Assembly (NCBI GenBank): GCA_965204115.1 | Contig: OZ241963.1 | Coordinates: 187,475-231,292, forward strand | Reading direction: 5' to 3' | DNA length: 43,818 bases | DNA from: Minisyncoccota bacterium | GTDB lineage: Bacteria; Patescibacteriota; Minisyncoccia; Phycocordibacterales; JABAAK01 | Part shown: piece by piece, positions 3,821 through 32,526 of the stretch | Numbering within the stretch: position 1 is the stretch's first letter | How the letters are laid out: every line of letters begins with the position of its first letter | The notes under the pieces: model-generated | The model's input: only the letters and a program-made list of their open reading frames with translations | Databases searched by the model: none | What the model was told of the DNA's origin: nothing | Made by a program: the position numbers and the translations under genes

Positions 3821-5857
3821 TCACTCATCAAGCCCCTCCAAATACCGAATCTCGTCCCGAACGAGAGCGGCAGTTTCAAAATCCAGCTCGGCGACAGCGT
3901 CTGCCATACGGCGCTCTTTTTCACGGATGGTTTTCTTCGGTGCTTTACGGTACTGCTCAATATCAAACTCCGCCAAAGTGGCAACCGTTTTTACCCGCCG
4001 CTCCTCCAGCTCTTCCGTGATGTCTTTAATGTTCTTTACAATCGTTTTCGGGGTGATGTTATGTTCCTTGTTGTGGGCGAGCTGCAGTTCCCTGCGCCGC
4101 TTCGTCTCCTCCATCGCCCGCTCCAATGAGCCCGTTGTCTTGTCGGCATAGAGGATGACCCGCCCGTCAACATTGCGGGCAGCACGGCCGATCGTCTGAA
4201 TGAGCGAGGTCTCCGACCGCAGAAACCCCTCCTTATCAGCATCTAAAATTGCCACCAAAGTAACCTCCGGCAAATCAAGCCCCTCCCGCAAAAGGTTCAC
4301 CCCGACCAGCACATCAAACGCCCCCTTGCGAAACTGCGTCAGCAGCTCAATCCGCTCAATTGTTTTCACCTCACTGTGTAAGTACTCCGCGCGCACCCCC
4401 GCGTCGGCTAAGTATTCCGCCAATTCTTCCGCTGTCTTTTTTGTCAGCGTGGTCACCAGCGCCCGCCCGCCCTTCGCGATGTCTTTCTGCGCCTCAGCGA
4501 TAAAATCTTTCACCTGTCCCGGGTAGTCATCGGTGCCGGTTACCGGATGCACCGCCACCTCCGGGTCCACCAAGCCCGTCGGACGAATAATCTGCTCCAC
4601 AATATGCCCCTTGCTGTGTTCCCGCTCGTACGCATCCGGCGTCGCAGAGGTGTAGACAACCGGACCAACCCGTTCAGCAAACTCTTCAAAAGTGAGCGGG
4701 CGGTTGTCCCGCGCCGAAGGCAGCCGAAAGCCGTGCTGCACCAGCGTGTCCTTCCGTGAGCGGTCTCCCGCGTACATCCCGCCGATTTGCGGCACCGTCA
4801 CATGCGACTCGTCAATCACCGTCAGAAAATCGGCATTACCATCAGCATCCTTAGGAAAGTATGAAAGGAGCGTGTGCGGCGCCTCCCCGGCAGCCCGCCG
4901 ATCAAAATGCCGCGAGTAGTTTTCAATGCCGTTGCAGTACCCGATCTCTTTAATCAGTGCCAAATCCTGTAGCGTGCGCCGCCGCAGCCGCTCATACTCC
5001 AGCACCTTCCCCTCCTTGTCCAGCTCCGCCAGCCGCTCCTGCAGCTCCTGCTCGATAGATTCAATCGCCGCCTCCTGCGCCTCCTTATCAGAGACAAAGT
5101 GCTTTGCCGGGAACAAAAAAAACGCGTCAACCGACGCGTCTTCTATCGCGCGGGTCAGCGCGTTAATGCGCGTGATGCCGCTAATGCTTGATCGATCAAA
5201 CGCAATGCGATAGATCGCCTCCTCGTTCACCGGCATAATCTCAACCGCATCCGCGATCACCCGCACCTTCCCGGACTGCAGCTCCCCCGTCGTCCGCTCA
5301 AAGTAGAGTGCTATCGCCTTCCGCACCAACTCCTCCCGCGTCAGCCCCATACCCTGCTCAATACGCAGATGCACCTTCTCATATTCCTCCGGGCTTCCCA
5401 AACCATAGATGCACGACACCGACGCAACCACCACCACATCACTTCGCGTCAGCAACGCCTGTGTCGCCGCATGCCGCAAGCGGTCAATCTCCTGATTGAC
5501 CAGTGCCTCCTTGGCGATGTAGGTGTCCGACCCCGGGACATACGCCTCCGGCTGGTAGTAGTCGTAGTAGGAGACAAAGTAGTGCACCGGACTGTTCGGA
5601 AAAAATTCTTTGTACTCCTGCGCCAGCTGTGCCGCGAGCGTTTTGTTGTGGGCGATAACCAGCGTCGGCTTATTCCACTGCGCGATGACATTCGCCGCGG
5701 TGAAGGTCTTCCCCGAGCCCGTCACCCCCAGCAGGGTTTGGTGCCGCGCATCATTCTCCAAGCCGCCAACAAGCGCGTCTATCGCCTGCGGCTGATCGCC
5801 GGCCGGCGTTTTGTCGCTCGCGAGGACAAACTTATTTCTGGACCTCATACAGCTCAA
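3821..5857 (-). CDS. uvrB: excinuclease ABC subunit B
   Basis: 678 aa with GVTGSGKTFT Walker A, helicase motifs, and a C-terminal UVR domain (ELDFETAALVRDEIRYL). Confidence 0.95.
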   Translation of the reverse strand: MSCMRSRNKFVLASDKTPAGDQPQAIDALVGGLENDARHQTLLGVTGSGKTFTAANVIAQWNKPTLVIAHNKTLAAQLAQEYKEFFPNSPVHYFVSYYDYYQPEAYVPGSDTYIAKEALVNQEIDRLRHAATQALLTRSDVVVVASVSCIYGLGSPEEYEKVHLRIEQGMGLTREELVRKAIALYFERTTGELQSGKVRVIADAVEIMPVNEEAIYRIAFDRSSISGITRINALTRAIEDASVDAFFLFPAKHFVSDKEAQEAAIESIEQELQERLAELDKEGKVLEYERLRRRTLQDLALIKEIGYCNGIENYSRHFDRRAAGEAPHTLLSYFPKDADGNADFLTVIDESHVTVPQIGGMYAGDRSRKDTLVQHGFRLPSARDNRPLTFEEFAERVGPVVYTSATPDAYEREHSKGHIVEQIIRPTGLVDPEVAVHPVTGTDDYPGQVKDFIAEAQKDIAKGGRALVTTLTKKTAEELAEYLADAGVRAEYLHSEVKTIERIELLTQFRKGAFDVLVGVNLLREGLDLPEVTLVAILDADKEGFLRSETSLIQTIGRAARNVDGRVILYADKTTGSLERAMEETKRRRELQLAHNKEHNITPKTIVKNIKDITEELEERRVKTVATLAEFDIEQYRKAPKKTIREKERRMADAVAELDFETAALVRDEIRYLEGLDE

Positions 5858-6371
5858 TCAAGAACCGTAGCGTTGTGTTCGGCGGAATACTGCCCGCCTG
5901 CTGATCGCCATACCCCATCTCCGGCTGAATGATAACCAATCGCTTCCCGCCGACTTGCATGCCCGTCACTCCCATATCAAAGCCCGGGATCACCTGCCCA
6001 CTGTCCAGCACAAAAGTAAACGCAGTACCACGCTCGGTATTCTGATCAAAAATAACCTCTTCACCCGTGTCCGGATCAATGCGCGTACCGATATAGCCCA
6101 CACTCACCGTGTTTCCCGACTCCGCAGTTTCCCCTTCACCAACCTGCAAGTCAAGAATAGTCACCGGATCAGAAAAAGCCGCAGCACCGGGTTCGGTAAA
6201 GTCGCCCTGTCCGGACAACGCTGAGTTTCCCGCCGTGTTGCCGCCCGAGAAACCGGTACGGAACATACTAAACGGAAAGATCTGTGAGAACAGCTGACCG
6301 CCGAATATAAACGGTACGAAGATTATTAATGCTAGCCCAATGGCGATGTAGGTCTGTATATTTTTTTCCAT
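5832..6371 (-). CDS. FKBP-type peptidyl-prolyl cis-trans isomerase, membrane anchored
   Basis: N-terminal TM helix. FKBP core GQVIPGFDMGVTGMQVGGKRLVIIQPEMGYG...PPNTTLRFLIELYEV. Confidence 0.85.
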   Translation of the reverse strand: MEKNIQTYIAIGLALIIFVPFIFGGQLFSQIFPFSMFRTGFSGGNTAGNSALSGQGDFTEPGAAAFSDPVTILDLQVGEGETAESGNTVSVGYIGTRIDPDTGEEVIFDQNTERGTAFTFVLDSGQVIPGFDMGVTGMQVGGKRLVIIQPEMGYGDQQAGSIPPNTTLRFLIELYEVQK

Positions 6372-6471
6372 ACAAAAATACTATACCACATTATTTTTTT
6401 GTCAAGCAAGATATCTAACATATGCTATCCTACCTATGTAGAAAATGTAGAGAAACAAAAAAACGAAAAAC

Positions 6472-6546
6472 GGCCCTATCGTCTAGCGGCTAGGACGCTG
6501 CCCTCTCACGGCAGAAACCGGGGTTCGATTCCCCGTAGGGTCACCA
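6472..6546 (+). tRNA. tRNA-Glu (anticodon CTC), CCA encoded
   Basis: Manual cloverleaf: acceptor GGCCCTA/TAGGGTC, anticodon arm CTGCC-CTCTCAC-GGCAG, T arm CGGGG-TTCGATT-CCCCG, 3' ACCA. Confidence 0.9.
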
Positions 6547-6983
6547 AGGTTTAAAGGCGGAGTCTGTGAGGACAGTGGGTTTTCCTTTGCGCCGTCGTCA
6601 CCATGGCATTGCTTTGTCAAGTTTCCACATCTTTGATGCTGTAATTGCGTATACGACGATAGTGCCATTATTTTTTTCGCCATAATGAATCTGCGCATCG
6701 TAAGATGTGCGGTGCTTAAGAAGTACTTTTTATTCGTTAAATATTTTCTTATGAATATATTACTAACAAATTTGAAGTGTTCCATTTGGGAGGTTAAACT
6801 TTTAAGCTGATGATCTGGCAAGGAAGTGCGGCTGATAGTCTTGGGCATAACAATCAATTTATTCACAGACTTATCACAGTGTGCAAGAGTGGCTTGACTG
6901 TCGATCAAGTCTCTACGGAAATACACCGATCATGGTGAACTTGAAGTAGTGCAACACCGCTTCCAAAGTGAATATCTAATGGC

Positions 6984-7009
6984 AAAAAAGAGGTTGACAC
7001 CTCTTTTTT
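6984..7009. terminator. bidirectional hairpin terminator
   Basis: AAAAAAGAGGT-TGAC-ACCTCTTTTTT. Confidence 0.55.
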
Positions 7010-7432
7010 GTTTGTATCGTCCTCTCCTGTTGGTTTGCTATTCCTCGTACTGTTACTCTACTGCGAGAGGGCAGGCATTCTCCGCTCACGCAATCTGGTG
7101 AAGTTTGTGTAAACGGCAGATTTCCTTATGATGTTACTCTATAATTGCCACATCATTTGACAATTGAGACCGTATAAAGATAATTAGAAAAATCTTAAAT
7201 ATATTTATAGCATAAAAATTTTTAATTTATATAAAAAAATCTTATTTTACAGTATATTTTATAATAAAAAATTATAAGTCAAAAAATATGCTAATCTGTA
7301 AATAAAGTATAAATTTATATTTTGTGTAAATTAATTAGTTTTTGTCTTTATTTTACAATTTTTAATAAAATATAGGAAATGATATAAAAAATAATTATTT
7401 TTTTTTGGTAAAGTTTTTTACATATGATGATG

Positions 7433-7460
7433 TTGACAAAATACATTCCTCATGTATACT
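7433..7460 (+). promoter_or_regulatory. sigma70-like promoter TTGACA-N16-TATACT at the head of the 4-gene operon
   Basis: TTGACA is at 7433-7438 and TATACT at 7455-7460. The -10 box overlaps the tracked ATG at 7452, so either the promoter call or that start is wrong. Confidence 0.35.
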
Positions 7461-7880
7461 GTTTTTATAACCCGAGCAAATACAATTAACGATCTGTTCG
7501 CTGAGCCGAAGGAACTGCTTGATTCTATCGTGCCTGCTCTAAAAAGCAAGGTCTCCATTGACCAAAAAACGCTTGAGCCCGCCTTATCGTCGGCTGATGT
7601 GATAAAAGAGAAAACTCGCATTAAAGCACTCTGGTATCTGCTGGCGAAGAAGGCGGTTGAGTTATCGCCTGAAGCGGCAAAGGGTGATCAAATTGGAATG
7701 TCAGCAATAAAACTTGCTGATGCTCTTCGTTTAACGAAAGGACAGAGTGATGGGGCCGTGAATACACTCAAACGAGAGGGGGTAATTACGGTTTTTACTA
7801 AGAGGGGGAAAGAGGTCTTGTATCATATACCAGATCATATGGTAGAAACTGCAATCAAAATCGTGCAAGAAAAAAAGTAG
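7452..7880 (+). CDS. hypothetical small protein with C-terminal winged-helix-like domain (paralog A)
   Basis: 142 aa. The C-terminus MSAIKLADALRLTKGQSDGAVNTLKREGVITVFTKRGKEVLYHIP reads as helix-turn-helix plus a beta-hairpin wing. First gene of a tightly packed co-directional operon. Confidence 0.6.
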   Translation: MYTVFITRANTINDLFAEPKELLDSIVPALKSKVSIDQKTLEPALSSADVIKEKTRIKALWYLLAKKAVELSPEAAKGDQIGMSAIKLADALRLTKGQSDGAVNTLKREGVITVFTKRGKEVLYHIPDHMVETAIKIVQEKK

Positions 7881-7889
7881 GTAATTATT

Positions 7890-8306
7890 ATGGAAGAATA
7901 TATAACAAAAAAAGAATTTACAGCCCTTGAAAAGAGAGTAAAAAAAATAGAGAGGGCGTTTGGTGCTGATGCAAACACGGGCACTAAGAAAGTAAGGCGT
8001 GTGGAATCATCGTCTGAGTTTTTAAGAAAAAAAGATCTGAAAACTGCTATGGACGCTGTTATTTGTATTGTGTATTTTATTGAAAACGGAAGTGATGAGG
8101 ATGTTGGGGTTACATCTAGTGATATAGAGCAGGGGCTTAGAAAAGCGCGACAAATTGTTCCTAAAAATATATCAGACTGCCTTGCCAAGTGTGCGAAAAA
8201 AGGTCTTATCCAAGAGAGTGGTGACGATAAGAGGGAGGGTAAAAAAGTTTGGGTACTGACGAATACTGGGATTGAATATGTCGAAAACCTTGATAAAGAA
8301 GAATAA
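7890..8306 (+). CDS. hypothetical small protein with C-terminal winged-helix-like domain (paralog B)
   Basis: 138 aa, 9 nt after gene A. N-terminal charged helix and Ser/Lys-rich linker, then AVICIVYFIENGSDEDVGVTSSDIEQGL...KKGLIQESGDDKREGKKVWVLTNTG. Confidence 0.65.
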   Translation: MEEYITKKEFTALEKRVKKIERAFGADANTGTKKVRRVESSSEFLRKKDLKTAMDAVICIVYFIENGSDEDVGVTSSDIEQGLRKARQIVPKNISDCLAKCAKKGLIQESGDDKREGKKVWVLTNTGIEYVENLDKEE

Positions 8307-8312
8307 ATACTT

Positions 8313-8780
8313 ATGAATGACAAACAGTTTAAAATCATAGTTGACTTATTGAAGGAGATACGCGATGCCCTGAAAAAGTCTGAGTCTGCTGCTACTTCTG
8401 TAAAAAATAGTTCAAAGAAGAGGAACGCCTTCCCAGCAGTGCCATGGGAAACATACATAAAAAATAAACAACCGAAAAATGATTATGAGGTCGTTGCAGT
8501 TGTGGTTGATTATCTTACAAAAACAGGAAAAGAGGTTACGATAGAAAGTATTATTGAGTTTATTCGTGAAAGTTCGGTTGCGTTCTCAAATGTAAGAGAT
8601 CCCGAGAAGGTTGTGAACAATACGAAAAATAATAAACACTATGGTTATATTGAATTTGTCGATAAGAAAAAAAGAAAGCATTATCGACTAAGCATTAAAG
8701 GGTCTCAGTTTATAAATATATTGCAAGAAAAAAAATTATCTCCCGCTAATGAAATCTATGATGGCAAAAAGAAAAAGTAA
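8313..8780 (+). CDS. hypothetical small protein with C-terminal winged-helix-like domain (paralog C)
   Basis: 155 aa, 6 nt after gene B, with the same layout as B: VVAVVVDYLTKTGKEVTIESIIEFI...GYIEFVDKKKRKHYRLSIKG. Confidence 0.65.
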   Translation: MNDKQFKIIVDLLKEIRDALKKSESAATSVKNSSKKRNAFPAVPWETYIKNKQPKNDYEVVAVVVDYLTKTGKEVTIESIIEFIRESSVAFSNVRDPEKVVNNTKNNKHYGYIEFVDKKKRKHYRLSIKGSQFINILQEKKLSPANEIYDGKKKK

Positions 8781-9507
8781 TAAGAGCATTTTTTCAGCAA
8801 ACATTCCACAAGGCTTGGAGCAGGCACTAATTGCTGAGTATAAAAAAGTTATTGTCAGATATAAGAGCGGTGATTTTGAGCATCACGAAACATCTGTGGG
8901 AAAATTTTGTGAAGTGGTGTTACGCATTCTTGAATACAATCTAAGAGAAACTTTTACCCCCATTGGTGATCGCATCTCCAACACTGGAAAAATCATCAAT
9001 GAGACCATAAACAGTAAGAGTATTGATGGGTCAGTAAGAAAGAGACTTGCGCCACTGATTAAAATATTGCTTGGATTTCGTAACGAAAGAGATGCTGCGC
9101 ATGTTGGTGGAGTTGACTTGGAATCCATTGACACCAATTTTACTTTCTATGCAACTAGGTGGATATATGCTGAGTTAGTAAGAATATATGGCGACATGGC
9201 AGTGAAAGAAATACAAAAAGAGGTAGACACGGCCGCGGAGATTGCTTTTCCTGATTTGCTCAAAGTTGGTAACAAGACGGTCATTGTTAATCCAAACTTG
9301 ACGTCGGGAAAGGAAATATTACTGTCTCTCAGAGATGGGGAGAAATCTTTTGAAGAGTTATTTGAAATGAACAAAGAGCAGAATAAAGCGCGCTTTAAAA
9401 GAAAATTGAGTGATATGGAAAAACAAAAGCTTATTTATCTTAAAGAAAACCAGAGGTACCACTTGCTGCCCGCAGGAAGGTCAGAAAATGTGAAGTTCAT
9501 TAAATAG
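8749..9507 (+). CDS. HEPN-like (Rx4-6H) protein with C-terminal winged-helix-like domain
   Basis: 252 aa, overlapping gene C by up to 32 nt. All-helical N-terminal region contains LLGFRNERDAAHVGG, an RN...AH signature like HEPN families. The C-terminus is KSFEELFEMNKEQNKARFKRKLSDMEKQKLIYLKENQRYHLLPAG. Confidence 0.55.
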   Translation: MKSMMAKRKSNKSIFSANIPQGLEQALIAEYKKVIVRYKSGDFEHHETSVGKFCEVVLRILEYNLRETFTPIGDRISNTGKIINETINSKSIDGSVRKRLAPLIKILLGFRNERDAAHVGGVDLESIDTNFTFYATRWIYAELVRIYGDMAVKEIQKEVDTAAEIAFPDLLKVGNKTVIVNPNLTSGKEILLSLRDGEKSFEELFEMNKEQNKARFKRKLSDMEKQKLIYLKENQRYHLLPAGRSENVKFIK

Positions 9508-9547
9508 ATAGGACATGTTTAGTATGAATGCGCCCTTAATCTACACC

Positions 9548-9733
9548 TTAAAACTCTTCATAATTTTCACTTATCACCTCACTTAAATCCTCGGTGATGG
9601 TGTCCAGCCCTTCTTCCACCTCTTTGTTTCCGTTGCCCAACTGCACTTTTATCAAAAGTGTCATCGCTTGATCCAGCAAGTGCTTCTCATCTTTTATGGT
9701 TAATTCTTTCATATTCTTATTATAAAACATCAT
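9548..9733 (-). CDS. 61-aa acidic hypothetical protein translationally coupled to the DpnI-like gene
   Basis: Its ATG overlaps the upstream stop (ATGA at 9730-9733). The sequence is rich in D/E (EEGLDTITEDLSEVISENYEEF). Confidence 0.45.
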   Translation of the reverse strand: MMFYNKNMKELTIKDEKHLLDQAMTLLIKVQLGNGNKEVEEGLDTITEDLSEVISENYEEF

Positions 9734-10509
9734 TTCACTCTGTACCTGCCTTTGTTGTTTATGAAAGTTAGATACCCTTTGTCTCGCAAAAATTGTAGCT
9801 GCTGTCTAATTTTTTGCTTAATGTGCATATTCTCAGTATGTTTTTTGCTCAAATCATTTTCAAAGGTGTATATATCCTCCAAGGCAAATTCTTTCTTATT
9901 CAACTCGTCTATACATTTCATAATGTCCAGTGTCCACCCCCTCAGATTTGTTGCATGAGTTTTTCTCAAAAATAGGGTTTTTTGCCAATTTTTTAAAACG
10001 CTCTTTCTGGTTTCAATTGAGCCATTTTTGATATAAAAGATTCTTCCGTCATTCGGAACACTATTTAGTAGAATGTTACAGCCAACCCACCCTGCCCTTC
10101 TTGCACTCTGTGGCAAAGGTTTTCTTTTTTTAATAACATCCGGAACAAAGAAATGCTTTGGAATGACTATAAAATTTTTCACTGAGTGGTTTTTTGGGTC
10201 ATATCTCAAGAAAAAGAAATTTGGATTACTGTCACTCTTCAGCCGATTAATCATTGTTTTATACGCTCCGTCTACAACTTGATTACCGATACTGTCTTTC
10301 TTGCTCTTCAATTCATATTCCTCATTGCAGTTTTTACAATAAAAATCAGCAGCTGGTCTGTTGTTTTCAAATTTTTCTAAAGCATCCTTCCCGCAGTTTG
10401 GGCAAAAAACTTCCCTGTCAACCCAGTGCTCAGATAAAAATCTAACCTTCTGTGTCTTACTTTTATATCTACTCATCTCTTTTGCCCGAGTGTCAAAAAA
10501 TATTTGCAT
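9730..10509 (-). CDS. DpnI-family methyl-directed type IIM restriction endonuclease
   Basis: Near-colinear with my recollection of S. pneumoniae DpnI. Shared segments include FCPNCG...FENNRPAADFYCKNCNEEYELKSKK (Cys4 plus D...ExK), NPNFFFL, RKPLPQSARRAGWVGCNI, and the C-terminal winged helix HIKQKIRQQLQFLRDKGYL...KGRYRV. Confidence 0.9.
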   Translation of the reverse strand: MQIFFDTRAKEMSRYKSKTQKVRFLSEHWVDREVFCPNCGKDALEKFENNRPAADFYCKNCNEEYELKSKKDSIGNQVVDGAYKTMINRLKSDSNPNFFFLRYDPKNHSVKNFIVIPKHFFVPDVIKKRKPLPQSARRAGWVGCNILLNSVPNDGRIFYIKNGSIETRKSVLKNWQKTLFLRKTHATNLRGWTLDIMKCIDELNKKEFALEDIYTFENDLSKKHTENMHIKQKIRQQLQFLRDKGYLTFINNKGRYRVK

Positions 10510-10560
10510 ACGGTTTTACATCTTTCAAGAATACCCTAATATCTTTCATTGCTATTAGTA

Positions 10561-10566
10561 TATACT
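10561..10566 (+). promoter_or_regulatory. candidate -10 box (TTAGTATATACT) for the RT leader transcript
   Basis: Same TATA(TA)CT motif as other promoters here. It lies about 470 nt upstream of the RT ATG. Confidence 0.35.
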
Positions 10567-10572
10567 GCAAAA

Positions 10573-11025
10573 CAGGTGCTACGCATGCCATGCACGACTC
10601 TTAAAATTTTCAATAGAATTCACTCGCAAACAGTCGCACCGGAAAAACCACTTGCATTTTAAAAGGAGCCATGTGATAATGCAGGCGTGGGTGTGTGCAT
10701 TCACGCATACACCCCGCCGTCAGTGGTTGCTATTTAACCCTCGGGCGCTTAGTGGTCACAGCTCTGTCGGATACAACAGGAGTTACACTCCCGCCAGTAG
10801 ACGACATCTACGAGTACATCTCGGTGATGGTTAATACAATGTGCTCCGCAAGAGCACATACCACTCGCTGGTGTTATGCTATAATGCGTATGATGAAAAG
10901 ACTGCTACGGAATATCATAGTGCCGTGGCAATTACACCAGCGAAGCTGGGTGAGTGGATTACAATGAGTACTGCTCAGCAAACGGTTCGACTCCGTTTCC
11001 ACCCTCAAACTCACTTTTTATTATT
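10573..11025 (+). ncRNA. candidate structured ncRNA/leader upstream of the reverse transcriptase
   Basis: GC-rich non-coding block inside an AT-rich island. Hairpins: 10684-10718 (GGCG-GGGTGT-TGC / GCA-ACACCC-CGCC), 10839-10859 (ATGTGCTC-CGCAA-GAGCACAT), CACCAGC-GAA-GCTGG(G)TG, and a tRNA-like T arm at 10981-10997. The closing helix GTGAGT/ACTCAC is followed by TTTTTATTATT. Confidence 0.45.
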
Positions 11026-11035
11026 CCAAATCAGC

Positions 11036-12244
11036 ATGACTAGTATTGACCTAACGCAAATCATAACAGAACAAGAATTAGAAAATGCGCGGAAGAAGCT
11101 CTTTGGGCATGAAGCACGAAGAAAAAAACCGCAAAAAAATATACACCACCCGCCGGCAGGAAGAGGTGTGCGCAATAAATTTCACGAAGAAAATATTAAT
11201 ACAGGCGAAATATACCAACAACGATGTGCTGACTTCAAATTCAAGCCCTACACAGGAACCGCTATTGAGAAGCCGAGTGGGGGCTATAGACCATTGCTTG
11301 TACCACATAACGAGGACAGAATCATACTCAAGGCAATATTCCCACATATCAGAGGCATCATTCTGCGAAAACACTCACACGAAGCTGAAATGCTCGGCGT
11401 CGGCAAAAAGTTTTCCAGAAAAAACATCGGCAATATAGTAAGCGATATTGCATGGATGACCTGCCAGGACGGATACCGATACATTATGAAAATAGACTTT
11501 TCCAGTTTTTTCTCAACAATAGATAGAAAACATCTACTGAGTATTCTGCGTGAAAAATACTTCAACCCTAACGATCTGATAGAGCTAATCCTGCTAAACC
11601 TTATTAAGGTATCTCTTTATAACGAAATACAAGAAGAAGGAGGCCCAGGGTCGTTTTTCTTAGGCGACATAGCGAGCATGAACCTGAAAGAAGTGGGTAT
11701 TCCACAAGGGCTTCCGTATTCCCCATTATTGGCAAACATCTACACACTTGGAGTTGACCAAGCCATCAACAGTATAGACGGTTGTAGAGTAATCCGGTAT
11801 ATTGATGATATGATAATCGTCTCAAAGACGAAAAAGTGTCAACACGACGCTTTTAACTTACTACGACAGATGGCTAAGAGAAAAGGGCTAAGGTTAAACG
11901 AAGAGAAAACAAAAACTTATAACATCAACAGCTCGAAGCACAGTCATATTAATTTTCTGGGTATCAATATAAGGAGTGACGGCACAAAAACTCTCCCGAC
12001 AGAAAAAAAGGGAAAAATCAGAGGGTGGCTACAAAAAATTAATGACAGCTCTCACCATCTTGCAAAATACACCAACCACCCACACTACAAAGAATCAGAG
12101 CATTATAAATCTTGCAGTGTGCAGGACATTGTTAAAAAGAAGATGCGGAATTCAATTGACGGAGTCAGAAGGCATTACAAATCAAACTGTATACAGGGGG
12201 TTGATGAATTCATTGAAAGAGTGGAAAAACAATACTCGCTCTGA
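11036..12244 (+). CDS. reverse transcriptase (group-II-intron-like / defence-associated 'unknown group' type), no fused effector domain
   Basis: RT motifs are IEKPSGGYRPLLVPHNEDRIILKAI (1-2), YIMKIDFSSFFSTID (3), GIPQGLPYSPLLANIY (4), VIRYIDDMIIVS (5, YxDD), GLRLNEEKTK (6) and INFLGINI (7). The start is placed at the ATG at 11036; the tracked GTG at 10841 lies inside a hairpin of the leader. Confidence 0.9.
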   Translation: MTSIDLTQIITEQELENARKKLFGHEARRKKPQKNIHHPPAGRGVRNKFHEENINTGEIYQQRCADFKFKPYTGTAIEKPSGGYRPLLVPHNEDRIILKAIFPHIRGIILRKHSHEAEMLGVGKKFSRKNIGNIVSDIAWMTCQDGYRYIMKIDFSSFFSTIDRKHLLSILREKYFNPNDLIELILLNLIKVSLYNEIQEEGGPGSFFLGDIASMNLKEVGIPQGLPYSPLLANIYTLGVDQAINSIDGCRVIRYIDDMIIVSKTKKCQHDAFNLLRQMAKRKGLRLNEEKTKTYNINSSKHSHINFLGINIRSDGTKTLPTEKKGKIRGWLQKINDSSHHLAKYTNHPHYKESEHYKSCSVQDIVKKKMRNSIDGVRRHYKSNCIQGVDEFIERVEKQYSL

Positions 12245-12270
12245 TTGATTTTTCGCACCATAATGATCTA

Positions 12271-12337
12271 TCACCCATTCACAAGGTAGTAGTACTTCCC
12301 TCTTTTTTCGATGATGCCTTCGGTGAGGGGGGCTGTG
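12271..12337 (-). pseudogene. displaced duplicate of the 3' end (last 22 codons plus stop) of the MutY-like gene (att-like repeat)
   Basis: 63/67 nt identical to 13107-13173. Translates on the minus strand to ..APLTEGIIEKRGKYYYLVNG*, versus ..ALLTEGIIEKRGKYYYLANG* in the intact gene. Confidence 0.85.
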
Positions 12338-12407
12338 TTGTCTACCTTGACAGAATGGGTGAAAGGTGGTTTGGTAGGTGTTGCTATACTTAAAAAGTGT
12401 GATGTGG

Positions 12408-12413
12408 TATACT
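12408..12413 (+). promoter_or_regulatory. candidate -10 box (GTGGTATACT)
   Basis: Consensus-like motif about 40 nt upstream of the AGGAGG-preceded ATG at 12453. A second TGCTATACT is at 12382-12390. Confidence 0.35.
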
Positions 12414-12452
12414 GGTAAATAGGTTATTGTGCAGCTATTTAGGAGGCACTGA

Positions 12453-13019
12453 ATGTCTAAAAAATTGTCGAAATTGCAGGTTTTTCAGGTTATTGGGGCC
12501 ATATTGATTGTGGCTCTTTGTGTTTTTTTGGTACTTTGCTTTGTTCAGCGAGATAAAATAGAAGATCTTGAGGTAGAAAACTCTGCTCTCGAAGGTCAGG
12601 TAGTGACGATTCAAGCTGAGCACGGTGAGACCCAAGAGGCCCTTAAAAATGCCGAAGAGCAGGTGGGTGCGAAAAACGTAGAAATCGTAAAATTAGAGGT
12701 GGTAATACAAGAGGCGGAAGAGAATTTTAACGCTTTGCAGGTTGACCATGGTCAGCTTGAAAAAAAGGTGAAAAATCTTCAATCCCTTAGAAGTGTTGAT
12801 AGGTCTAAAATTGTAAAGCTGACAGCAGAAAACAAAGATCTGAGGTCAGCTCTGTCTATCAGGAAAGTAGCTTTAGACGACTCCCTTAACGCTATTAAAG
12901 AGGTTCGGCAATCTGTTAATGAGGGCACGCAGGCAAACGAGAGGATGCTTGACGCCGTCGCCCAGAGCAGAGCGCGGATCGCCGAGATGAATGAGGTCAT
13001 TAATCGTATAAATAAATGA
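12453..13019 (+). CDS. membrane-anchored coiled-coil protein
   Basis: 188 aa with SD AGGAGG 7 nt upstream. N-terminal TM helix (VFQVIGAILIVALCVFLVLCFV) is followed by a heptad-like E/K/Q-rich helix. Confidence 0.65.
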   Translation: MSKKLSKLQVFQVIGAILIVALCVFLVLCFVQRDKIEDLEVENSALEGQVVTIQAEHGETQEALKNAEEQVGAKNVEIVKLEVVIQEAEENFNALQVDHGQLEKKVKNLQSLRSVDRSKIVKLTAENKDLRSALSIRKVALDDSLNAIKEVRQSVNEGTQANERMLDAVAQSRARIAEMNEVINRINK

Positions 13020-13038
13020 GAAAACAGCATAATAACCT

Positions 13039-13082
13039 AAAAGGTGTTTTTTGGAAATACATTTTTCCGAAAAGCACCTTTT
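13039..13082. terminator. bidirectional intrinsic terminator (19-bp stem)
   Basis: AAAAGGTGTTTTTTGGAAA-TACAT-TTTCCGAAAAGCACCTTTT flanked by T/A runs, between convergent genes. Confidence 0.7.
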
Positions 13083-13106
13083 ATTTTTTATGCATAACAA
13101 CCTATA

Positions 13107-13973
13107 TCACCCGTTCGCCAGGTAGTAGTACTTCCCTCTTTTTTCGATGATGCCTTCGGTGAGGAGGGCTGTGAGGGCTTTGTTGATGTGTTGTGTCGGT
13201 AATGCTTGGAGTTGTTTTCTGGAGGTGCCTTTTTGTGCGCTGATGAAGTGGCGGAGGAGCGCGCCGCGGGCTTGGCGGATGGAGCCGGTGAAGGGTGCTT
13301 GCTTGGTGTAGTGTTTGCTGCGAGGGTTTGTGCGCACTCCCTGCGCCTTGAGGTGGGTGCCGTAATCCATCATTGCGGAATAAAAGGTGCGGGGGGTGGT
13401 TTTGCGGTTGAGGGCGTTTTGTAATAGTTGCTCAACGAAGCGGTTGATTGTTTTGTCGCTCACCGCTTTCTTTTTTCGTGCGCAGTGATGGAGTACGACG
13501 GTGCGGATGTTTGTTTCGACGATGATGACCGGTTTGTCGTAGGCGAATGCCAGCACGGCACCGGCGGTGTAGGGGCCAATGCCGGGCAGGGTGCGCAGTG
13601 CTTCTTCAGTTGTCGGCACGATGCTGTTGTGCGAGGCGGTGATGGCTTTTGCGGTGTTGTGCAGTGCGATCGCCCGGCGGTTGTAGCCGAGGCCGCTCCA
13701 GAGTGCAAGCACTTCTTTTCGCGGGGCATTGGCGAGCTCGGTGATGTTCGGAAATGTTTTTATAAATGCGTTGTACTTCGGCACGACGCGATCAACTTGT
13801 GTTTGTTGCAGCATACATTCTGAAACTAAAATGCGGTATGGGTCGGTCGTCTCCCGCCAGGGGAATGTTCGCTGTTCGTTTTTGTAGTGTGTCAGTATGC
13901 GAGAAACAACATCGCTGATTTTTTCTTTTGACGATGGCGTGGGCATAGAGGGGTATAGAAAAACCCTCGGCAA
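13107..13973 (-). CDS. HhH-GPD DNA glycosylase (MutY/EndoIII-like N-terminal domain) with C-terminal winged-helix-like tail
   Basis: ECMLQQTQVDRVVPKYNAF...LWSGLGYNRRA...LPGIGPYTAGAV match the MutY/Nth core. The usual C-x6-C-x2-C-x5-C Fe-S loop is not visible. The C-terminus is QLQALPTQHINKALTALLTEGIIEKRGKYYYL. Confidence 0.8.
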   Translation of the reverse strand: MPRVFLYPSMPTPSSKEKISDVVSRILTHYKNEQRTFPWRETTDPYRILVSECMLQQTQVDRVVPKYNAFIKTFPNITELANAPRKEVLALWSGLGYNRRAIALHNTAKAITASHNSIVPTTEEALRTLPGIGPYTAGAVLAFAYDKPVIIVETNIRTVVLHHCARKKKAVSDKTINRFVEQLLQNALNRKTTPRTFYSAMMDYGTHLKAQGVRTNPRSKHYTKQAPFTGSIRQARGALLRHFISAQKGTSRKQLQALPTQHINKALTALLTEGIIEKRGKYYYLANG

Positions 13974-14688
13974 ACCCGAGAATAAAATATATCGGGGTTA
14001 GCCGAGGGAGTAAGATGTGCTTTGCGTGAATGCCGTTACCGGATCCGTGGCAATCCGCATTCTGCACGAAGTGCGGTGCATACAACTGTACGAGAAGTGT
14101 GCAGCACTTATTGCGCGATTTAGATCGCACATTAAAAGAACTGCAAGACAAAGTTATGTGTGAGTCATACATTTCGTGTACGACTTGTTGTTTGCGCTGT
14201 GCGCAAAATGATAACTTTGTTATGCTTAATGAAATCTCCCACGGATTTCAAAATTCTGAATGATCATAGTTCCCTTCAACCTGTCTGTCAGCCGGGCTAC
14301 TGTCCACTGACACTTGTACTAAGTGTCTCGTGAAAAGGCAGAAGCCACAGACAAGACACGAAGAAAGGATTACCTGAGCGGTGAAAGATCAAAGAGATAG
14401 CATACACATTATTCTGTTGTCAAACAAAATAACGGTATGTTTTTATGCAATCTATATTGCAAAGCGGGCATGAAAGTAATCTTGAATCCTATGAGAGCGC
14501 GTAGCGCTTCATAGACAGGATTTCGTCCTGCGCCGCAGACGAGCAGTTTTGCCGTCGCGGGAAGGATTATTTTCCGCTCTGTGTTTGCAAATTTTCATAG
14601 GTCACATGAGTTCCCTATCTGCTTTTATAATACCATACCTTGTCAAAGAAAAACGGTTTGCTGTGCGCGTGTGGAAAAACTTTACTGT

Positions 14689-15282
14689 CTATGCTGTGCC
14701 GAGTACATTTTTTAAAAAACTGTGCCGATGAATGGGGCTTGGGCCGTGTTCTTTGATCATTTCCCGATGGTGTTTTGTGGCGTATCCTTTGTGTCGTTCA
14801 AAGCCGTAGGCGGGAAATTGTTCGCTGAGTTTGCACATTGTGTCGTCGCGGGATTCTTTGGCAATGATTGAGGCGAGTGAGATAAGTGGGTTTTTTTCAT
14901 CTCCTTTAATAATGTGCGTCGCGTTATATTCCTCCGGTATCGGCAAGCCGTAGTCAGAATATACATGCGCTATCGGCTGGTGCTGCTGCAGTTTGAGCAG
15001 TGCCTCAGTTGAGGCGGTGTAGAGGGCGCGGATAATGCCGCAGGTGTCTATCTCGCCGGCGGAAACTGAGAACACGGTGCAGTGAAAGCTGTCCCGCTCC
15101 ATGGTATTGATTGCGCGGATCAGCCACTCTTGTCTTTTTTTCTGCGAAAGTTTTTTGGAATCACGAATACCGTTCAATACTTTTTCCGGTAACGCATCAT
15201 CCAGCCATTGCACCGCACATACGGTCACCGGGCCTGCCAATGGTCCACGCCCCACTTCGTCTATTCCGACGCATCCTTTCAT
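14689..15282 (-). CDS. rnhB: ribonuclease HII
   Basis: VGIDEVGRGPLAGPVTV, ...DSKKLS..., and a C-terminal GY..KHH motif (HKGYATKHH). Confidence 0.9.
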   Translation of the reverse strand: MKGCVGIDEVGRGPLAGPVTVCAVQWLDDALPEKVLNGIRDSKKLSQKKRQEWLIRAINTMERDSFHCTVFSVSAGEIDTCGIIRALYTASTEALLKLQQHQPIAHVYSDYGLPIPEEYNATHIIKGDEKNPLISLASIIAKESRDDTMCKLSEQFPAYGFERHKGYATKHHREMIKEHGPSPIHRHSFLKNVLGTA

Positions 15283-15411
15283 ATGCTCTCATTCTACACT
15301 ATGCTGAAACTGTTGTATACACCTTTTTGCCGATATTTTTGTCAATGGCTCTCAAAAAACATTATTGACAGATAGTCAAGTTGCGGGAAAGATGGTGTTC
15401 TGAAAAAGAGG

Positions 15412-15654
15412 ATGACATGCTATAGTAAATGTATGGTTATAAACTCTGAAGACACAGGTAATGATATTAAGATAGAGTTCACAAACGGACACCTTGATAA
15501 ACTTCGCAAAATAACAAAGGAGTATGGAATGAAAGGCGAGGTGCATACTATTGCCTTCCTACTTGATGTTGCAGAGCAATCAAAAGGAAAAGGGTTGTCC
15601 GTTGAATCTAAAAGATACACGCCCTCTGATGAAATGAAATATGAAAAAGAATAG
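15412..15654 (+). CDS. hypothetical small protein
   Basis: 80-aa ORF (more likely starting at MVINSEDT) in the AT-rich cassette. It overlaps the next ORF by 14 nt. Confidence 0.35.
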   Translation: MTCYSKCMVINSEDTGNDIKIEFTNGHLDKLRKITKEYGMKGEVHTIAFLLDVAEQSKGKGLSVESKRYTPSDEMKYEKE

Positions 15655-15889
15655 AACAAAAGATACAATTACTGATGAGCAGAGGGATACATTTGTTGCG
15701 CATGAGGATTTTGATGATAGATTTTTTCACCTAATGAAGGAAAGCAAGGAAGTGGATAGAATAATTGAAGCATCGGTGAAAGATTGCCTTAAAAAACATT
15801 GGATGACAATGGCGTATCATTTGGTTATTCTTTCAGCTGCAGTATATGGTATTGCTAATTTTTTTACTAAAACAGCCTTGTCGGCATAG
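15641..15889 (+). CDS. hypothetical small protein with C-terminal TM helix
   Basis: 82 aa with an acidic N-terminus and a C-terminal hydrophobic helix MAYHLVILSAAVYGIANFF. Confidence 0.4.
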   Translation: MKKNRTKDTITDEQRDTFVAHEDFDDRFFHLMKESKEVDRIIEASVKDCLKKHWMTMAYHLVILSAAVYGIANFFTKTALSA

Positions 15890-16176
15890 AGGTAATTAAA
15901 TATATACAATTCCCTATTTTAATAAAGAATTTTCTTGATGAAAATTTGTTACCTAAATCTGAGAAATTTCTGCACGGAAGAAAAGATATTGTCAGAGAAT
16001 TTTGGTTTGTTGTATGGTGTGTTCACAAAGATGATAAGAATTCTTTTGATCCAGAAGAATATTTGAATTTGAAAGTGATTTCTAAAGAACGCAATAGTTT
16101 TAGAGATAGTTCAGATTGTAAGATTGGATTAAGAAGTTTTGGACATTTAGATTGACTTAAATAGGTGTTGAAGTGA

Positions 16177-16182
16177 TATACT
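16177..16182 (+). promoter_or_regulatory. candidate extended -10 (TGATATACT) just upstream of the MTase start
   Basis: TATACT lies 4 nt before ATG 16187 and 10 nt before ATG 16193. TTGACT is 19 nt upstream. Confidence 0.4.
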
Positions 16183-16186
16183 GAAT

Positions 16187-17131: not shown

Positions 17132-17808
17132 CAAAAAATATCTTTTCTAGAAAATTACATACAAAGATTGAAAAAAGGGTAAAAGAGCTTTTAATTTCTC
17201 AGCCGGATTTTTTATCTGAACAAACACTACAAAGTCCACGAGCGGTTGGCGATGCTATACAGAATATATTAGAAAAAGATTTTCAAGAAATAATCAGTGA
17301 TTTATTGCAAAATAATTCTCGTGTTAAAGAATATTCGGCATCATTTGCAAGGAGAGCAATGGCCGATATTGCCTTTTATGATGAGGATGAAAACTATTAT
17401 ATTGTTGATGTCAAAACACATAGGCTGGATACTAAATTTAATATGCCTAATCTCACATCTGTTGAGCGGTTGAGCAGGTTTTATGAAGATGATAAGAATA
17501 ATTTTGTCATATTAAAGATTGACTATGAGATTCAAAATAATAATTTAGAGATCAAAAGAGTGTTATTTAAGTTGATAGAATATTTTTCTTGGGAATGCTT
17601 GACACTTGGAGCATTAGGCTGGGGGCAAATACAAATAGCAAATTCAAACATAATTAAGATTGCAGAAAACCAATTACGAAGAGAATGGATGTTGGAAATG
17701 TGCAATAACTTACTTGAATTTTATCCAAAAGAAATAGAAAAAATCAACGTAAGAATTGAACACTTTAAGAAAGTGAGAAAGTTTTGGGAAAACAAAAAAT
17801 GCCTATGA
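17128..17808 (+). CDS. putative type II restriction endonuclease (PD-(D/E)xK-like)
   Basis: ATGA overlap with the MTase stop. Candidate catalytic core is ADIAFYDEDENYYIVDVKTH (D...D-V-K). Confidence 0.55.
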   Translation: MTKNIFSRKLHTKIEKRVKELLISQPDFLSEQTLQSPRAVGDAIQNILEKDFQEIISDLLQNNSRVKEYSASFARRAMADIAFYDEDENYYIVDVKTHRLDTKFNMPNLTSVERLSRFYEDDKNNFVILKIDYEIQNNNLEIKRVLFKLIEYFSWECLTLGALGWGQIQIANSNIIKIAENQLRREWMLEMCNNLLEFYPKEIEKINVRIEHFKKVRKFWENKKCL

Positions 17809-32521: not shown

Positions 32522-32526
32522 ACTTA

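Follow-up and report, generated by a model that had tools for sequence, protein, structure and literature searches.

Between a tRNA-Glu(CTC) gene, whose 3'-terminal CCA is encoded (ARAGORN, Rfam), and a mutY-like HhH-GPD glycosylase gene, the window (the whole 43,818-nt stretch of DNA that was analysed) contains an AT-rich region at 6547-13106. The region carries four small ORFs, a DpnI orthologue with a coupled acidic ORF, a reverse transcriptase (RT; RVT_1) preceded by a structured RNA, and a coiled-coil ORF (Table 1), in agreement with the cargo listed in the preliminary description. GC content falls from 0.558 at 3821-6546 to 0.383 across the region and returns to 0.542 in the mutY-like gene, the host genome (662 kb, CPR) having a mean GC of 0.491 and a 5th percentile of 1-kb windows of 0.407. 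GC3 is 0.30-0.50 in the island genes (0.30-0.43 in the main ones) versus 0.55-0.71 in the flanking genes. GC against both flanks and genome, and GC3 against the flanks, confirm that the proposed discontinuity is real and that backbone composition is regained at the mutY-like gene. However, the drop is not abrupt at the CCA, as had been stated: 6547-7130 still has 41.6% GC, and the extreme of 16% is reached at 7131-7451.

Table 1. Features of the island and its two anchors (window coordinates)
Feature	Position	Strand	Basis
tRNA-Glu(CTC), left anchor	6472-6546	+	ARAGORN; Rfam tRNA 61 bits
Non-coding stretch, 41.6% GC	6547-7130	.	direct sequence reading, alignment
Promoter-like spacer upstream of wHTH/HEPN operon, 16% GC	7131-7451	+	GC count
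P1, 142-aa orphan protein	7452-7880	+	ORF
P2 and P3, paralogous copies of the cassette's small partner protein	7890-8306, 8313-8780	+	HMM
P4, HEPN-like N-terminal domain and C-terminal winged helix	8749-9507	+	homologues, AF2 model
61-aa acidic ORF, translationally coupled to DpnI gene	9548-9733	-	
DpnI orthologue	9730-10509	-	PF06044 262 bits, PF17726 (DpnI_C) 105 bits
Structured ncRNA of RT, ~330 nt, 51% GC	10681-11007	+	conservation, covariation, fold
tRNA-like minihelix at ncRNA end	5' acceptor strand 10954-10958; T arm 10981-10997; 3' acceptor strand 10998-11004		
RT, stand-alone, group-II-like	11036-12244	+	RVT_1 E 1e-27
Orphan copy of mutY's last 22 codons, stop and 2 nt, 49.3% GC	12269-12337	-	alignment
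Insert between mutY-end copies, 767 bp	12338-13104	+	
Membrane-anchored coiled-coil protein, 188 aa	12453-13019	+	weak coiled-coil-type matches alone
Bidirectional terminator, 20-bp stem	13038-13083		
mutY-like HhH-GPD glycosylase, right anchor	13107-13973	-	TIGR01084 mutY 183 bits (below the cut-off of 286.5), HhH-GPD

Two congeners (G002 and G004) share synteny with the host genome exactly up to the 3' end of tRNA-Glu on one side and the stop codon of mutY on the other. The comparison of the tRNA-Glu-to-mutY interval suggested earlier thus finds breaks at both edges, but the interval itself is not conserved in relatives. MutY orthologues are present in 5/5 congeners, their C-termini diverging past EKRGKYYYL, and in none of the relatives examined are tRNA-Glu and mutY neighbours, nor was an empty site seen among them. 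Because the two anchors lie apart in relatives, the island sits where two separately variable spots joined, not inside one conserved interval. Genomes of the host lineage are heavily rearranged. Within the stretch beside the tRNA (6547-7130), the first ~90 nt align weakly with a tRNA trailer common to both congeners, and around 6984-7010 there is a terminator-like hairpin flanked by A and T runs; no homologue of this stretch was found in 200 genomes of the order. The only long frame there (6483-6929, minus strand) runs antisense across tRNA-Glu, has flat GC1/2/3 and matched no family.

The supposed 4-gene wHTH/HEPN-like operon proved to be a conserved cassette of a HEPN-wHTH protein and its partner, the latter present in two copies, together with one orphan gene. 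Two sigma-70-like sites (7157-7184 and 7433-7460), each 11/12 by consensus matches alone, lie in the spacer in front of it. The orphan, P1, looks winged-helix-like at its C-terminus when judged by eye, matched no family and is absent from the 300 other genomes of the order (1/301). An HMM of the partner family, derived from 43 upstream partners in metagenomes, does not match P1 (E 0.41) but matches P2 (E 7e-12) and P3 (E 4e-9); P2 also gives a weak MarR_2 match. P3 and P4 overlap by 32 nt, and the R111-N-x-R114-x3-H118 motif of P4 is invariant in 16 homologues. In the AF2 model of P4 (pLDDT 84.7), the N-terminus aligns over 120 aa with the HEPN protein 2hsb (Z 10.4), the C-terminus aligns with MarR/PadR folds (Z 11-12), and additional leads were a Foldseek match to sacsin HEPN (probability 0.87) and Hypoth_Ymh in the Atlas. 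P4 is predicted to be the effector RNase of the cassette. Its family includes 556 metagenomic relatives, with a coupled partner at 53 of 58 loci; the closest relative of P4 is 93% identical, and the P2-P3-P4 order recurs in G002 at a different locus. P1-P4 gave no PADLOC match, and neither the cassette partner nor the HEPN protein belongs to a Pfam, NCBIfam or PADLOC family; the combination of wHTH partner and HEPN-wHTH protein is widespread and uncharacterised. It may act as a nucleic-acid-sensing, toxin-antitoxin-like module in which the partner would restrain the HEPN RNase.

The DpnI orthologue matches PADLOC mREase_II (374 bits) and, across its full length, S. pneumoniae DpnI 4ESJ (292 bits), and it retains the CPNCG/CxxC and D...ELK motifs; judged by its sequence, this DpnI-type methyl-directed endonuclease is intact. 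Full-length DpnI occurs in 6/301 genomes of the order, and small coupled downstream ORFs, of unrelated families, also lie beside other DpnI genes of the order. Given the full-length similarity to the pneumococcal enzyme, the island protein would cut incoming Gm6ATC-methylated DNA. The same genome encodes a D12-class adenine MTase (window 31457-32521); should this enzyme generate Gm6ATC, an active DpnI would be toxic to its own host, which counts against a defence reading.

For the RT, found in 7/401 genomes of the order, the best profile matches are group II RT/maturase (115 bits, cut-off 300) and PADLOC UG17 (107 bits), all best matches falling under curated cut-offs where one exists. The nearest solved structures are group II intron RTs (~95 bits) and G2L4 (82 bits), and the closest homologues, of 396-402 aa, start at the same Met as 11036, the closest relative being 89% identical. 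The structured leader previously noted for this orphan RT is a conserved structured ncRNA, for which no Rfam family match was obtained. Its T stem is 100% paired with compensatory pairs at 4/5, alifold of three sequences yields 54 pairs (20 compensatory), and the leader in the host genome folds with z = -4.28. The ncRNA ends in the tRNA-like minihelix; a TGTGATAAT box lies just upstream, and the same T arm, followed by 7 nt and TC, is located 25-50 nt upstream of the RT start at 6/6 RT-homologue loci fetched. The GC-richer block at 10560-11035 does stand out (46.8%); since it corresponds to this ncRNA, it is no sign of the nested insertion for which it had been taken. The RT and its RNA could form an RNA-templated, DRT-like defence module, in which the tRNA-like end may be a signal for processing or for CCA-tagging and initiation.

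The orphan mutY-end copy begins 24 nt past the RT stop codon and is identical at 65 of 69 positions, with sharp edges, to 13105-13173, the 3' end of mutY itself (13105-13973, minus strand, with this second repeat copy included). The duplication, previously placed at 12271-12337, is real and sharply bounded but 2 nt longer than described. The second GC-richer block (12245-12450), which contains it, reaches just 42.2%, its 69-nt core having 49.3%. The copies differ at two synonymous and two non-synonymous sites, and at both of the latter the functional mutY copy retains the G002 residue. The 767-bp insert between them has a promoter-like region with AGGAGG; its coiled-coil gene is absent from the 300 other genomes of the order (1/301), and the encoded protein gave no PADLOC match. 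Together with the flanking duplication, this insert is the island's clearest insertion scar, and it shows that the RT module already adjoined mutY when the insert arrived.

Both anchors behave as variable sites in relatives. Behind the same tRNA-Glu, G002 carries an AlwI-type R-M system, a D12 MTase and a Gabija-like OLD-ATPase/UvrD-helicase pair, and G004 an N6_N4 MTase. The mutY 3' flank holds C5-MTase/HATPase-Ymh genes in G002 and Panacea-antitoxin and MTase genes in G004. In the host genome, four of the five low-GC blocks of at least 3 kb adjoin a tRNA, a count equalled in 5/20000 random placements; R-M or type IV genes occur in the other three tRNA-adjacent blocks, which showed no integrase match among the ORFs scanned.

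The earlier remark that no integrase or transposase is visible holds for the island and extends to the genome, where the families searched revealed one Xer-like tyrosine recombinase in the entire 662 kb and no serine recombinase/resolvase, rve, DDE_Tnp_1 or Y1 (Y1_Tnp) transposase. A six-frame search with PF00589 at E<=10, with stops read through, gave no match in or near the island, PF00239 gave no signal there, and 6547-7130, formerly suspected to be a decayed integrase region, yielded no recombinase remnant. The anticipated direct repeat of the tRNA-Glu 3' end does not occur in the window, allowing 3 mismatches in 20 nt. Duplicated tRNA 3' ends are present elsewhere in the host genome, which also encodes ComEC.

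Most probably, 6547-13106 is a mosaic defence island that was acquired horizontally and sits at the junction of two variable spots, without mobility genes. The foreign composition, exact synteny breaks, differing cargo of the congeners, patchy modules and lack of recombinase and transposase genes agree with the acquired, composite accessory island proposed in the preliminary description. The composite reading, with two or more insertions, holds because the modules have separate patchy distributions, and not on account of the GC blocks. The island consists of four independently distributed modules (HEPN cassette, DpnI, RT-ncRNA and coiled-coil insert), most likely accreted stepwise at the two anchors. 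Entry was most likely by DNA uptake, considering the presence of ComEC, with insertion left to host recombination or to enzymes provided in trans that have since been lost. Simple replacement through flank homology fails to explain entry, since the same modules occupy different loci in different genomes.

A rather doubtful alternative is that one or more classical integrase-type elements targeted the tRNA-Glu and mutY 3' ends and then decayed, losing their integrases and most att repeats. The left boundary coincides with the 3' end of a tRNA, most large low-GC blocks adjoin tRNAs, and the imperfect 69-nt direct repeat rebuilding the mutY 3' end presents a textbook attL/attR picture; the divergent mutY C-termini of congeners look as if elements bring gene ends, tRNA 3' ends are duplicated elsewhere in the genome, and extra tyrosine recombinases occur on small contigs of a further congener (G003). 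However, those contigs have no tRNA and share no homology with the host genome, the permissive recombinase searches and the search for a tRNA-Glu repeat were negative in and near the island and in the window, respectively, and the ORFs scanned behind this tRNA in G002 and G004, or beside other tRNAs of the host, gave no integrase match. Moreover, the piece between the mutY repeats holds one gene, and an integrase would not fit in it.

Two further explanations are far less credible. The RT and its RNA might have been the insertion engine, copying target 3' ends like a retro-element and thereby producing the mutY-end duplication and perhaps the tRNA-tail repeats elsewhere. The proximity of the orphan copy to the RT stop, the tRNA-like end of the RNA, and the status of the RT as the sole mobile-element-type enzyme in the genome among the families searched speak for this, yet the RT has no endonuclease domain, the sharp-edged duplicated segment is DNA-like and bears no signature of poly-A or template switching, and inspection of other RT-homologue loci revealed no comparable duplicated gene end beside the RT; the idea is very improbable. 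Marginally less probable still, and disfavoured, is an ancestral region that is AT-rich for functional reasons and was lost or rearranged in the relatives examined. The separation of tRNA-Glu and mutY in every relative, and hence the lack of an empty site, in heavily rearranged genomes would fit, but the GC3 gap between the main island genes and their neighbours, the sparse and separate distribution of each module over 300-400 genomes of the order, the P2-P4 cassette at another G002 locus and the orphan mutY-end copy, a record of an insertion, stand against it.

Among known systems, the cassette resembles HEPN toxin-antitoxin/abortive-infection modules (HepT-MntA; Hypoth_Ymh/TIGR02391-type) in its Rx4-6H-type motif within a helical N-terminal domain and in being a tightly coupled two-gene cassette found in defence contexts. 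In contrast to HepT-MntA, its partner is a small wHTH-type protein rather than an MNT nucleotidyltransferase, and unlike such modules in general, its HEPN protein carries its own C-terminal wHTH. The RT shares with DRT10/UG17 and other ncRNA-dependent defence RTs (bioRxiv 10.64898/2026.04.29.721553; PMC12632851; PMC9226505) a stand-alone architecture, a dedicated structured upstream ncRNA and a defence-island setting, UG17 being its best PADLOC profile. However, it lacks a SLATT partner, matches group II intron RTs just as well, and has its ncRNA directly upstream and ending in a tRNA-like minihelix; the word "tRNA" is absent from the text of the DRT10/UG17 paper. With G2L4, a group II intron-like free-standing RT (bioRxiv 10.1101/2022.03.14.484287, PMC11761039), it has in common the YIDD motif, a length of about 400 aa and no intron RNA, whereas it possesses a conserved dedicated ncRNA and is no nearer to G2L4 than to intron RTs.

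At the level of the whole region, tRNA-targeting integrase islands and CIME-like integrase-less remnants offer the same tRNA 3'-end anchor, foreign composition and a direct repeat like that rebuilding the mutY 3' end, but here there is no integrase or remnant of one and no tRNA 3'-end repeat, and the repeat-bounded piece is just 767 bp. The alternative DpnI/DpnII restriction cassettes of S. pneumoniae are swapped through transformation and homologous flanks, with no mobility genes involved. The island matches them in its full-length DpnI orthologue with a coupled small downstream gene, in a host encoding ComEC and with a congener carrying adenine-MTase-based R-M at the same tRNA, although its coupled ORF is unrelated to those near other DpnI genes of the order. 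Defence islands were reportedly described by Makarova and co-workers in 2011, and hotspot surveys in E. coli and P. aeruginosa are said to have found variable hotspots between conserved core genes. The present region differs from these in that its host is a CPR genome of 662 kb in which the families searched revealed neither integrase nor transposase, that its flanks, tRNA-Glu and mutY, lie apart in relatives, and that two of its four modules are uncharacterised. As a kind of island it is ordinary: several unrelated defence-type modules cluster in a compositionally deviant stretch, and related genomes carry other defence systems at the same flank.

The AT-rich stretch between tRNA-Glu(CTC) and the mutY-like gene is a mosaic acquired defence island, located at a hotspot formed by the 3' ends of a tRNA gene and a protein-coding gene. 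This kind of feature is already known, and it occurs here in an unusually small genome without mobility genes among the searched families. The source genome (G000), that of a CPR/Patescibacteria-type bacterium, is a single contig of 661,662 bp (95% complete) with an overall GC content of 49.1%, and the 5th percentile of GC in its 1-kb windows is 40.7%. GC content falls from 55.8% upstream of the island (3821-6546) to 38.3% within it and returns to 54.2% in mutY, as had been described at first reading. The left-hand discontinuity is real, but the switch placed at the tRNA CCA, which is encoded in the gene, proved stepwise, passing through a tRNA-adjacent stretch of 41.6% GC before dropping to 16% in a promoter-like spacer. 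GC3 is 0.30-0.43 in the main island genes and 0.50 in a 61-aa ORF, against 0.55-0.71 in the flanking genes.

The left flank is colinear with two congeners, G002 and G004, as far as the tRNA 3' end and not past that point in tblastx comparisons, homology stopping at 6547-6561; a tRNA trailer of approximately 90 nt is common to both congeners and has left a weak trace in G000. On the right side, homology to both picks up again at the mutY stop codon, and the mutY C-termini of the three genomes differ just past a conserved EKRGKYYYL motif. These two flanking genes are not neighbours in relatives: in G002 one 696.5-kb contig carries tRNA-Glu at 649.9 kb and mutY at 69.8 kb, in G004 they are on separate contigs, and no empty site with tRNA-Glu directly beside mutY was found among the genomes examined. 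The island is therefore the junction of two separately variable spots, and the synteny comparison, with colinearity broken at both points and different cargo in G002 and G004, bears out the earlier proposal of acquisition. No paralogues of the island genes were found elsewhere in G000. If the tRNA and the mutY end are set aside, the only sequence that the island has in common with the rest of the genome is a stretch of about 47 nt, 85% identical to an intergenic segment of the tRNA-Ile island. An 18-nt inverted match to the tRNA-Glu(CTC) anticodon arm (15/18, with an exact 10-nt core, CTGCCCTCTC) may be what is left of an inverted tRNA fragment, or a product of chance.

Coordinates of the island, its modules and related features (window positions unless a genome or locus is named)
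Feature	Position	Strand	Remark
tRNA-Glu(CTC)	6472-6546		left anchor
Island	6547-13106
tRNA-adjacent stretch	6547-7130
Inverted match to tRNA-Glu(CTC)	7057-7074	minus	matches 6498-6515
Stretch common to tRNA-Ile island	7083-7129		matches genome 234742-234789
Promoter-like spacer	7131-7451
Module 1, operon P1-P4	7452-9507		P1 orphan; P2, P3 small paralogous partners; P4 HEPN-wHTH
Module 2, DpnI and coupled ORF	9548-10509
DpnI gene	9730-10509	minus
GC-richer block	10560-11035
Module 3, RT with ncRNA	10681-12244
ncRNA of the RT	10681-11007
RT ORF	11036-12244
Module 4, insert with mutY-end copy	12269-13104
Orphan mutY-end copy	12269-12337
Functional mutY end	13105-13173		last 22 codons, stop, 2 nt
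mutY-like gene	13107-13973	minus	right anchor
Second low-GC block	15283-17824		between rnhB-like gene and dnaE
D12-class adenine MTase	31457-32521	minus
MTase plus 299-aa ORF	31457-33426	minus	between tRNA-Phe and tRNA-Arg
tRNA-Leu(CAA) duplicates	33992-34052, 34118-34178
tRNA-Glu(TTC) 3'-end duplicates	genome 241960-242013, 242086-242139
Xer-like recombinase	genome 355942
G002 island at tRNA-Glu(CTC)	L025 4900-13689
G003 copy of MTase/nuclease cassette	L043 3913-5503		beside tRNA-Val(GAC)
G104 low-GC stretch with RT homologue and leader	L054 4737-11699

Both anchors behave as hotspots, since different cargo at one conserved flank across relatives is found at the tRNA-Glu 3' side and at the mutY 3' end alike. 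Beyond the same tRNA, the 8.8-kb island of G002 combines two adenine MTases, an R-M system of the AlwI family and a Gabija-like pair (an OLD-type ATPase/TOPRIM with a UvrD-like helicase); among its genes are an N6_N4 MTase, a D12-class MTase and the AlwI-family endonuclease. In G004 the same position is taken by an N6_N4 MTase and unassigned ORFs. Past the mutY stop, G002 encodes a C5 MTase and a HATPase_c_3/Hypoth_Ymh protein, and G004 a SocA/Panacea antitoxin, an 851-aa unknown protein and an MTase-like gene. In G000 itself, at least two defence-type systems are clustered (DpnI-type, RT and HEPN-wHTH cassette), among which DpnI is the strong assignment. The defence-type cargo of the preliminary description is thereby upheld, with 374 bits for DpnI against the mREase_II profile of PADLOC, matches of the RT to DRT profiles, and the HEPN-wHTH cassette.

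The association with tRNA genes is a feature of G000 as a whole: of its five low-GC segments of at least 3 kb, four have an edge no more than 400 nt from a tRNA, a figure equalled in 5 of 20,000 random placements. The tRNA-Ala-side block contains an MjaI-type R-M system and an MTase-HNH fusion, the tRNA-Ile/tRNA-Glu(TTC)-side block GmrSD-like, EcoRI-type MTase and IrrE genes, and the tRNA-Gly-side block an MTase and large unknown ORFs. Several side observations concern the same genome. CTAG is strongly depleted (observed/expected 0.23; TCGA 0.34, CATG 0.59), and the R-M system in the tRNA-Ala island is of the MjaI family (CTAG-type). The second low-GC block of the window (31.8% GC) is missing in G002 and G004, where the same flanking genes lie about 170 bp apart, and its MTase/nuclease cassette has a copy with 74% amino acid identity in the congener G003. 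In addition, a 61-nt exact duplicate of most of the tRNA-Leu(CAA) gene lies 126 nt downstream of it, and 54 nt at the 3' end of tRNA-Glu(TTC) are likewise duplicated at a spacing of 126 nt.

The clearest record of how the island grew is preserved at its mutY side. The duplicated gene 3' end reported at first reading is a 69-nt copy of the mutY end, identical to the functional end at 65 of 69 positions and sharply delimited at both edges. Two of the four differences are synonymous; the other two change an amino acid, and there the functional copy has retained the G002 residue, so that the orphan copy gives the impression of a relic subject to drift. The segment separating the copies contains a promoter-like region with an AGGAGG motif, a gene for a 188-aa membrane-anchored coiled-coil protein with no counterpart found in 300 further genomes of the order, and a bidirectional terminator with a 20-bp stem. 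Before this insert arrived, the RT stop codon stood 24 nt from the mutY end, which argues for stepwise accretion at the mutY anchor. The composite reading of the island accordingly holds by virtue of the module distributions and the mutY-end scar, and not of the GC-richer blocks as such, which had been taken as signs of nested insertions: the block upstream of the RT is GC-rich because it contains the RT ncRNA (51% GC). A DGR reading of the 69-nt repeat could draw on the position of three of the four differences at A residues of the RT-proximal copy; there are, however, just four changes, half of them synonymous, and they are on the mutY antisense strand. DGR RTs carry an SQ-type motif, whereas the motif here is QGLPYSP (group II/retron-like), and the DGR reading was rejected.

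The absence of an integrase or transposase noted from the sequence extends to the whole of G000: six-frame searches with PF00589 (E<=10) and PF00239, with stops read through, returned only the sole tyrosine recombinase, an Xer-like 301-aa open frame far from the island, and a noise match at 120904, and no resolvase, rve, DDE_Tnp_1 or Y1 transposase was found in six-frame family searches. The idea that the tRNA-adjacent stretch is a decayed integrase region found no support, as the PF00589 search at E<=10 was empty there, no homologue of the stretch was found in 200 genomes of the order, and its sole long frame runs antisense across the tRNA and has no family match. A phage or plasmid origin of the island was rejected (no blastn match in 50,697 phage or 72,556 plasmid records), and the extra integrases of G003, which lie on small contigs without a tRNA and without a link to G000, do not serve as a model.

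Insertion of the modules by an integrase that has since been lost is nevertheless a live rival. The island shares with integrase-type tRNA-targeting islands a boundary at the tRNA 3' end, but differs from them in having neither a recombinase gene or remnant nor a distal repeat of the tRNA 3' end; when the window was searched with a 20-nt pattern from the 3' end of tRNA-Glu, allowing up to 3 mismatches, nothing but the tRNA was recovered. One candidate exchange route is uptake by competence followed by host recombination, and DNA uptake is plausible given that G000 encodes ComEC. The occurrence of the same cassettes at different loci in different genomes is not accounted for by simple exchange through flank homology.

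The DpnI-type module is the most securely classified part of the cargo. Its 259-aa protein aligns over its whole length with Streptococcus pneumoniae DpnI (4ESJ, 292 bits, residues 13-255), keeping the zinc-binding cysteines (CPNCG, C..C) and the D...ELK core, and it covers PF06044 (positions 1-182 of 183) and PF17726 (positions 3-69 of 70). The full catalytic domain, C-terminal winged helix, Cys4 set and D...ExK core place it by sequence in the Type IIM DpnI family, for which cutting restricted to Gm6ATC-methylated DNA would be expected. Of 301 genomes of the order, 6 have a full-length DpnI gene, and these fall in different families. At three other DpnI loci (G185 L143, G176 L145 and G051 L146), a small downstream ORF abuts or lies near the DpnI stop; two of these encode related 52-aa basic proteins and one a very acidic 88-aa protein, none of them like the 61-aa acidic ORF of the island. 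A small partner gene next to DpnI is recurrent, and the family of the partner is not. The presence of DpnI in G000 and of adenine-methyltransferase R-M behind the same tRNA in a congener would constitute a natural incompatibility: if the MTases of the G002 island make Gm6ATC-containing sites, G002 DNA would be a substrate for the predicted G000 DpnI, which suggests a methylation-based barrier between related strains. The predicted activity would depend on the specificity of the D12-class adenine MTase encoded elsewhere in the window (354 aa, 174 bits). Upstream of this MTase is a 299-aa ORF with no family match, and the two look like another tRNA-flanked R-M-like pair.

The real novelty of the island lies in the cassette of small partners with a HEPN-wHTH protein and in the RT-ncRNA module. 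The HEPN-wHTH protein P4 (252 aa) is a member of a family without annotation, for which a metagenome scan gave 556 relatives; close relatives of P4 are 93% and 68% identical to it. Among the 58 loci with enough upstream sequence, 53 have a same-strand ORF of 130-230 aa abutting the P4 homologue; 43 of these upstream partners form one family, whose HMM matches P2 (E 7e-12) and P3 (E 4e-9) and gives no match to P1; no P1 turned up in 300 further genomes of the order. G002 carries P2-P3-P4 at another locus, next to a Dam-like MTase, with P4 65% identical. A profile search of the PDB with P4 returned nothing. In its structure model (pLDDT 84.7), the helical N-terminal domain resembles the HEPN protein 2hsb (Z 10.4 over 120 aa, a score that helical bundles may reach by chance), Foldseek points to the sacsin HEPN domain (probability 0.87), and the C-terminal domain folds as a winged helix of the MarR/PadR type (Z 11-12). 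The motif R-N-x-R-x3-H is invariant in 16 homologues (R111-N-E-R-D-A-A-H118), and the Rx4-6H motif of HEPN domains lies in the modelled alpha-helical bundle. Module 1 is probably a toxin-antitoxin-like or abortive-infection module with a predicted HEPN RNase effector.

These observations indicate that a 662-kb episymbiont-type genome concentrates its defence genes in a small number of low-GC islets beside tRNA genes, whose content turns over between species though integrases and transposases are absent among the searched families. The exchange of defence modules in CPR bacteria thereby becomes a concrete, testable question, and two delimited modules, the widespread wHTH-partner and HEPN-wHTH cassette and the RT with a tRNA-like ncRNA, are candidate new anti-phage mechanisms.

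The RT, with motifs GIPQGLPYSP and YIDD, scores nearly alike with the group II RT profile (115 bits) and with UG17 (107 bits, positions 39-295 of 429), and reaches 97 bits with the generic RT profile; the solved structures nearest to it are those of group II intron RTs, with G2L4 at 82 bits. It is classed neither as a mobile group II intron protein (TIGR04416, 115 bits, cut-off 300) nor as a retron RT (NF038233 retron St85, 80 bits, cut-off 235), and no Intron_gpII or other Rfam match was found in 5800-18500 at E<=0.1. Across a sample of 401 genomes of the order, 7 carry the RT, and the four congeners sampled are not among them; close homologues (89%, 47% and 44% identity; 396-402 aa) begin at the position of Met 11036. 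One of the homologues, in G104 from another family of the order, lies with its tRNA-like leader between tRNA-Arg(TCT) and tRNA-Glu(CTC), at low GC.

All six homologue loci fetched show, 25-50 nt upstream of the RT start, a canonical T arm with 7 nt and TC behind it. When these tRNA-like modules were compared over an ungapped 27-nt block, the T stem was paired in 30 of 30 cells, with compensatory changes in four of the five pairs. A complementary 5' strand lies approximately 20-40 nt upstream of the T arm, with a short hairpin in between in 4 of 6 loci. Together these elements appear to form a tRNA-like minihelix, comprising an acceptor stem, a single hairpin and the canonical T arm, with U-C-A after them. 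Three leaders align to 54 pairs, 20 with compensatory changes, the G000 leader folds with z = -4.28, and the ncRNA matches no Rfam family. The frame is open from 10841 and would allow the leader to be read as an N-terminal part of the RT, yet the homologues start at Met 11036 and the leader shows RNA covariation; nor is the T arm a relic of another tRNA (an att scar), as it recurs with covarying stems upstream of every fetched RT homologue.

It is possible, though no more than tentatively so, that the ncRNA-RT pair represents an undescribed group-II-like RT class serving CPR defence, in which an RNA with a tRNA-like end is tagged by tRNA enzymes and copied from its 3' end. The tRNA-processing and CCA-adding enzymes would use the minihelix to release and tag the RNA, and the RT would begin cDNA synthesis at the tRNA-like 3' end. 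More speculatively, the RT might drive the 3'-end-copying insertions seen in the genome. Among known ncRNA-dependent defence RTs (bioRxiv 10.64898/2026.04.29.721553; PMC12632851; PMC9226505), DRT10/UG17 has an ncRNA-SLATT-RT architecture with the SLATT effector in the operon, whereas the G000 module is without SLATT: no island ORF matches it in Pfam or PADLOC, and ORF inspection revealed no conserved partner gene at the RT-homologue loci. In its proposed mode of initiation, on the other hand, the G000 RT would resemble the RT of the Mauriceville retroplasmid, which starts cDNA at a tRNA-like 3' end.
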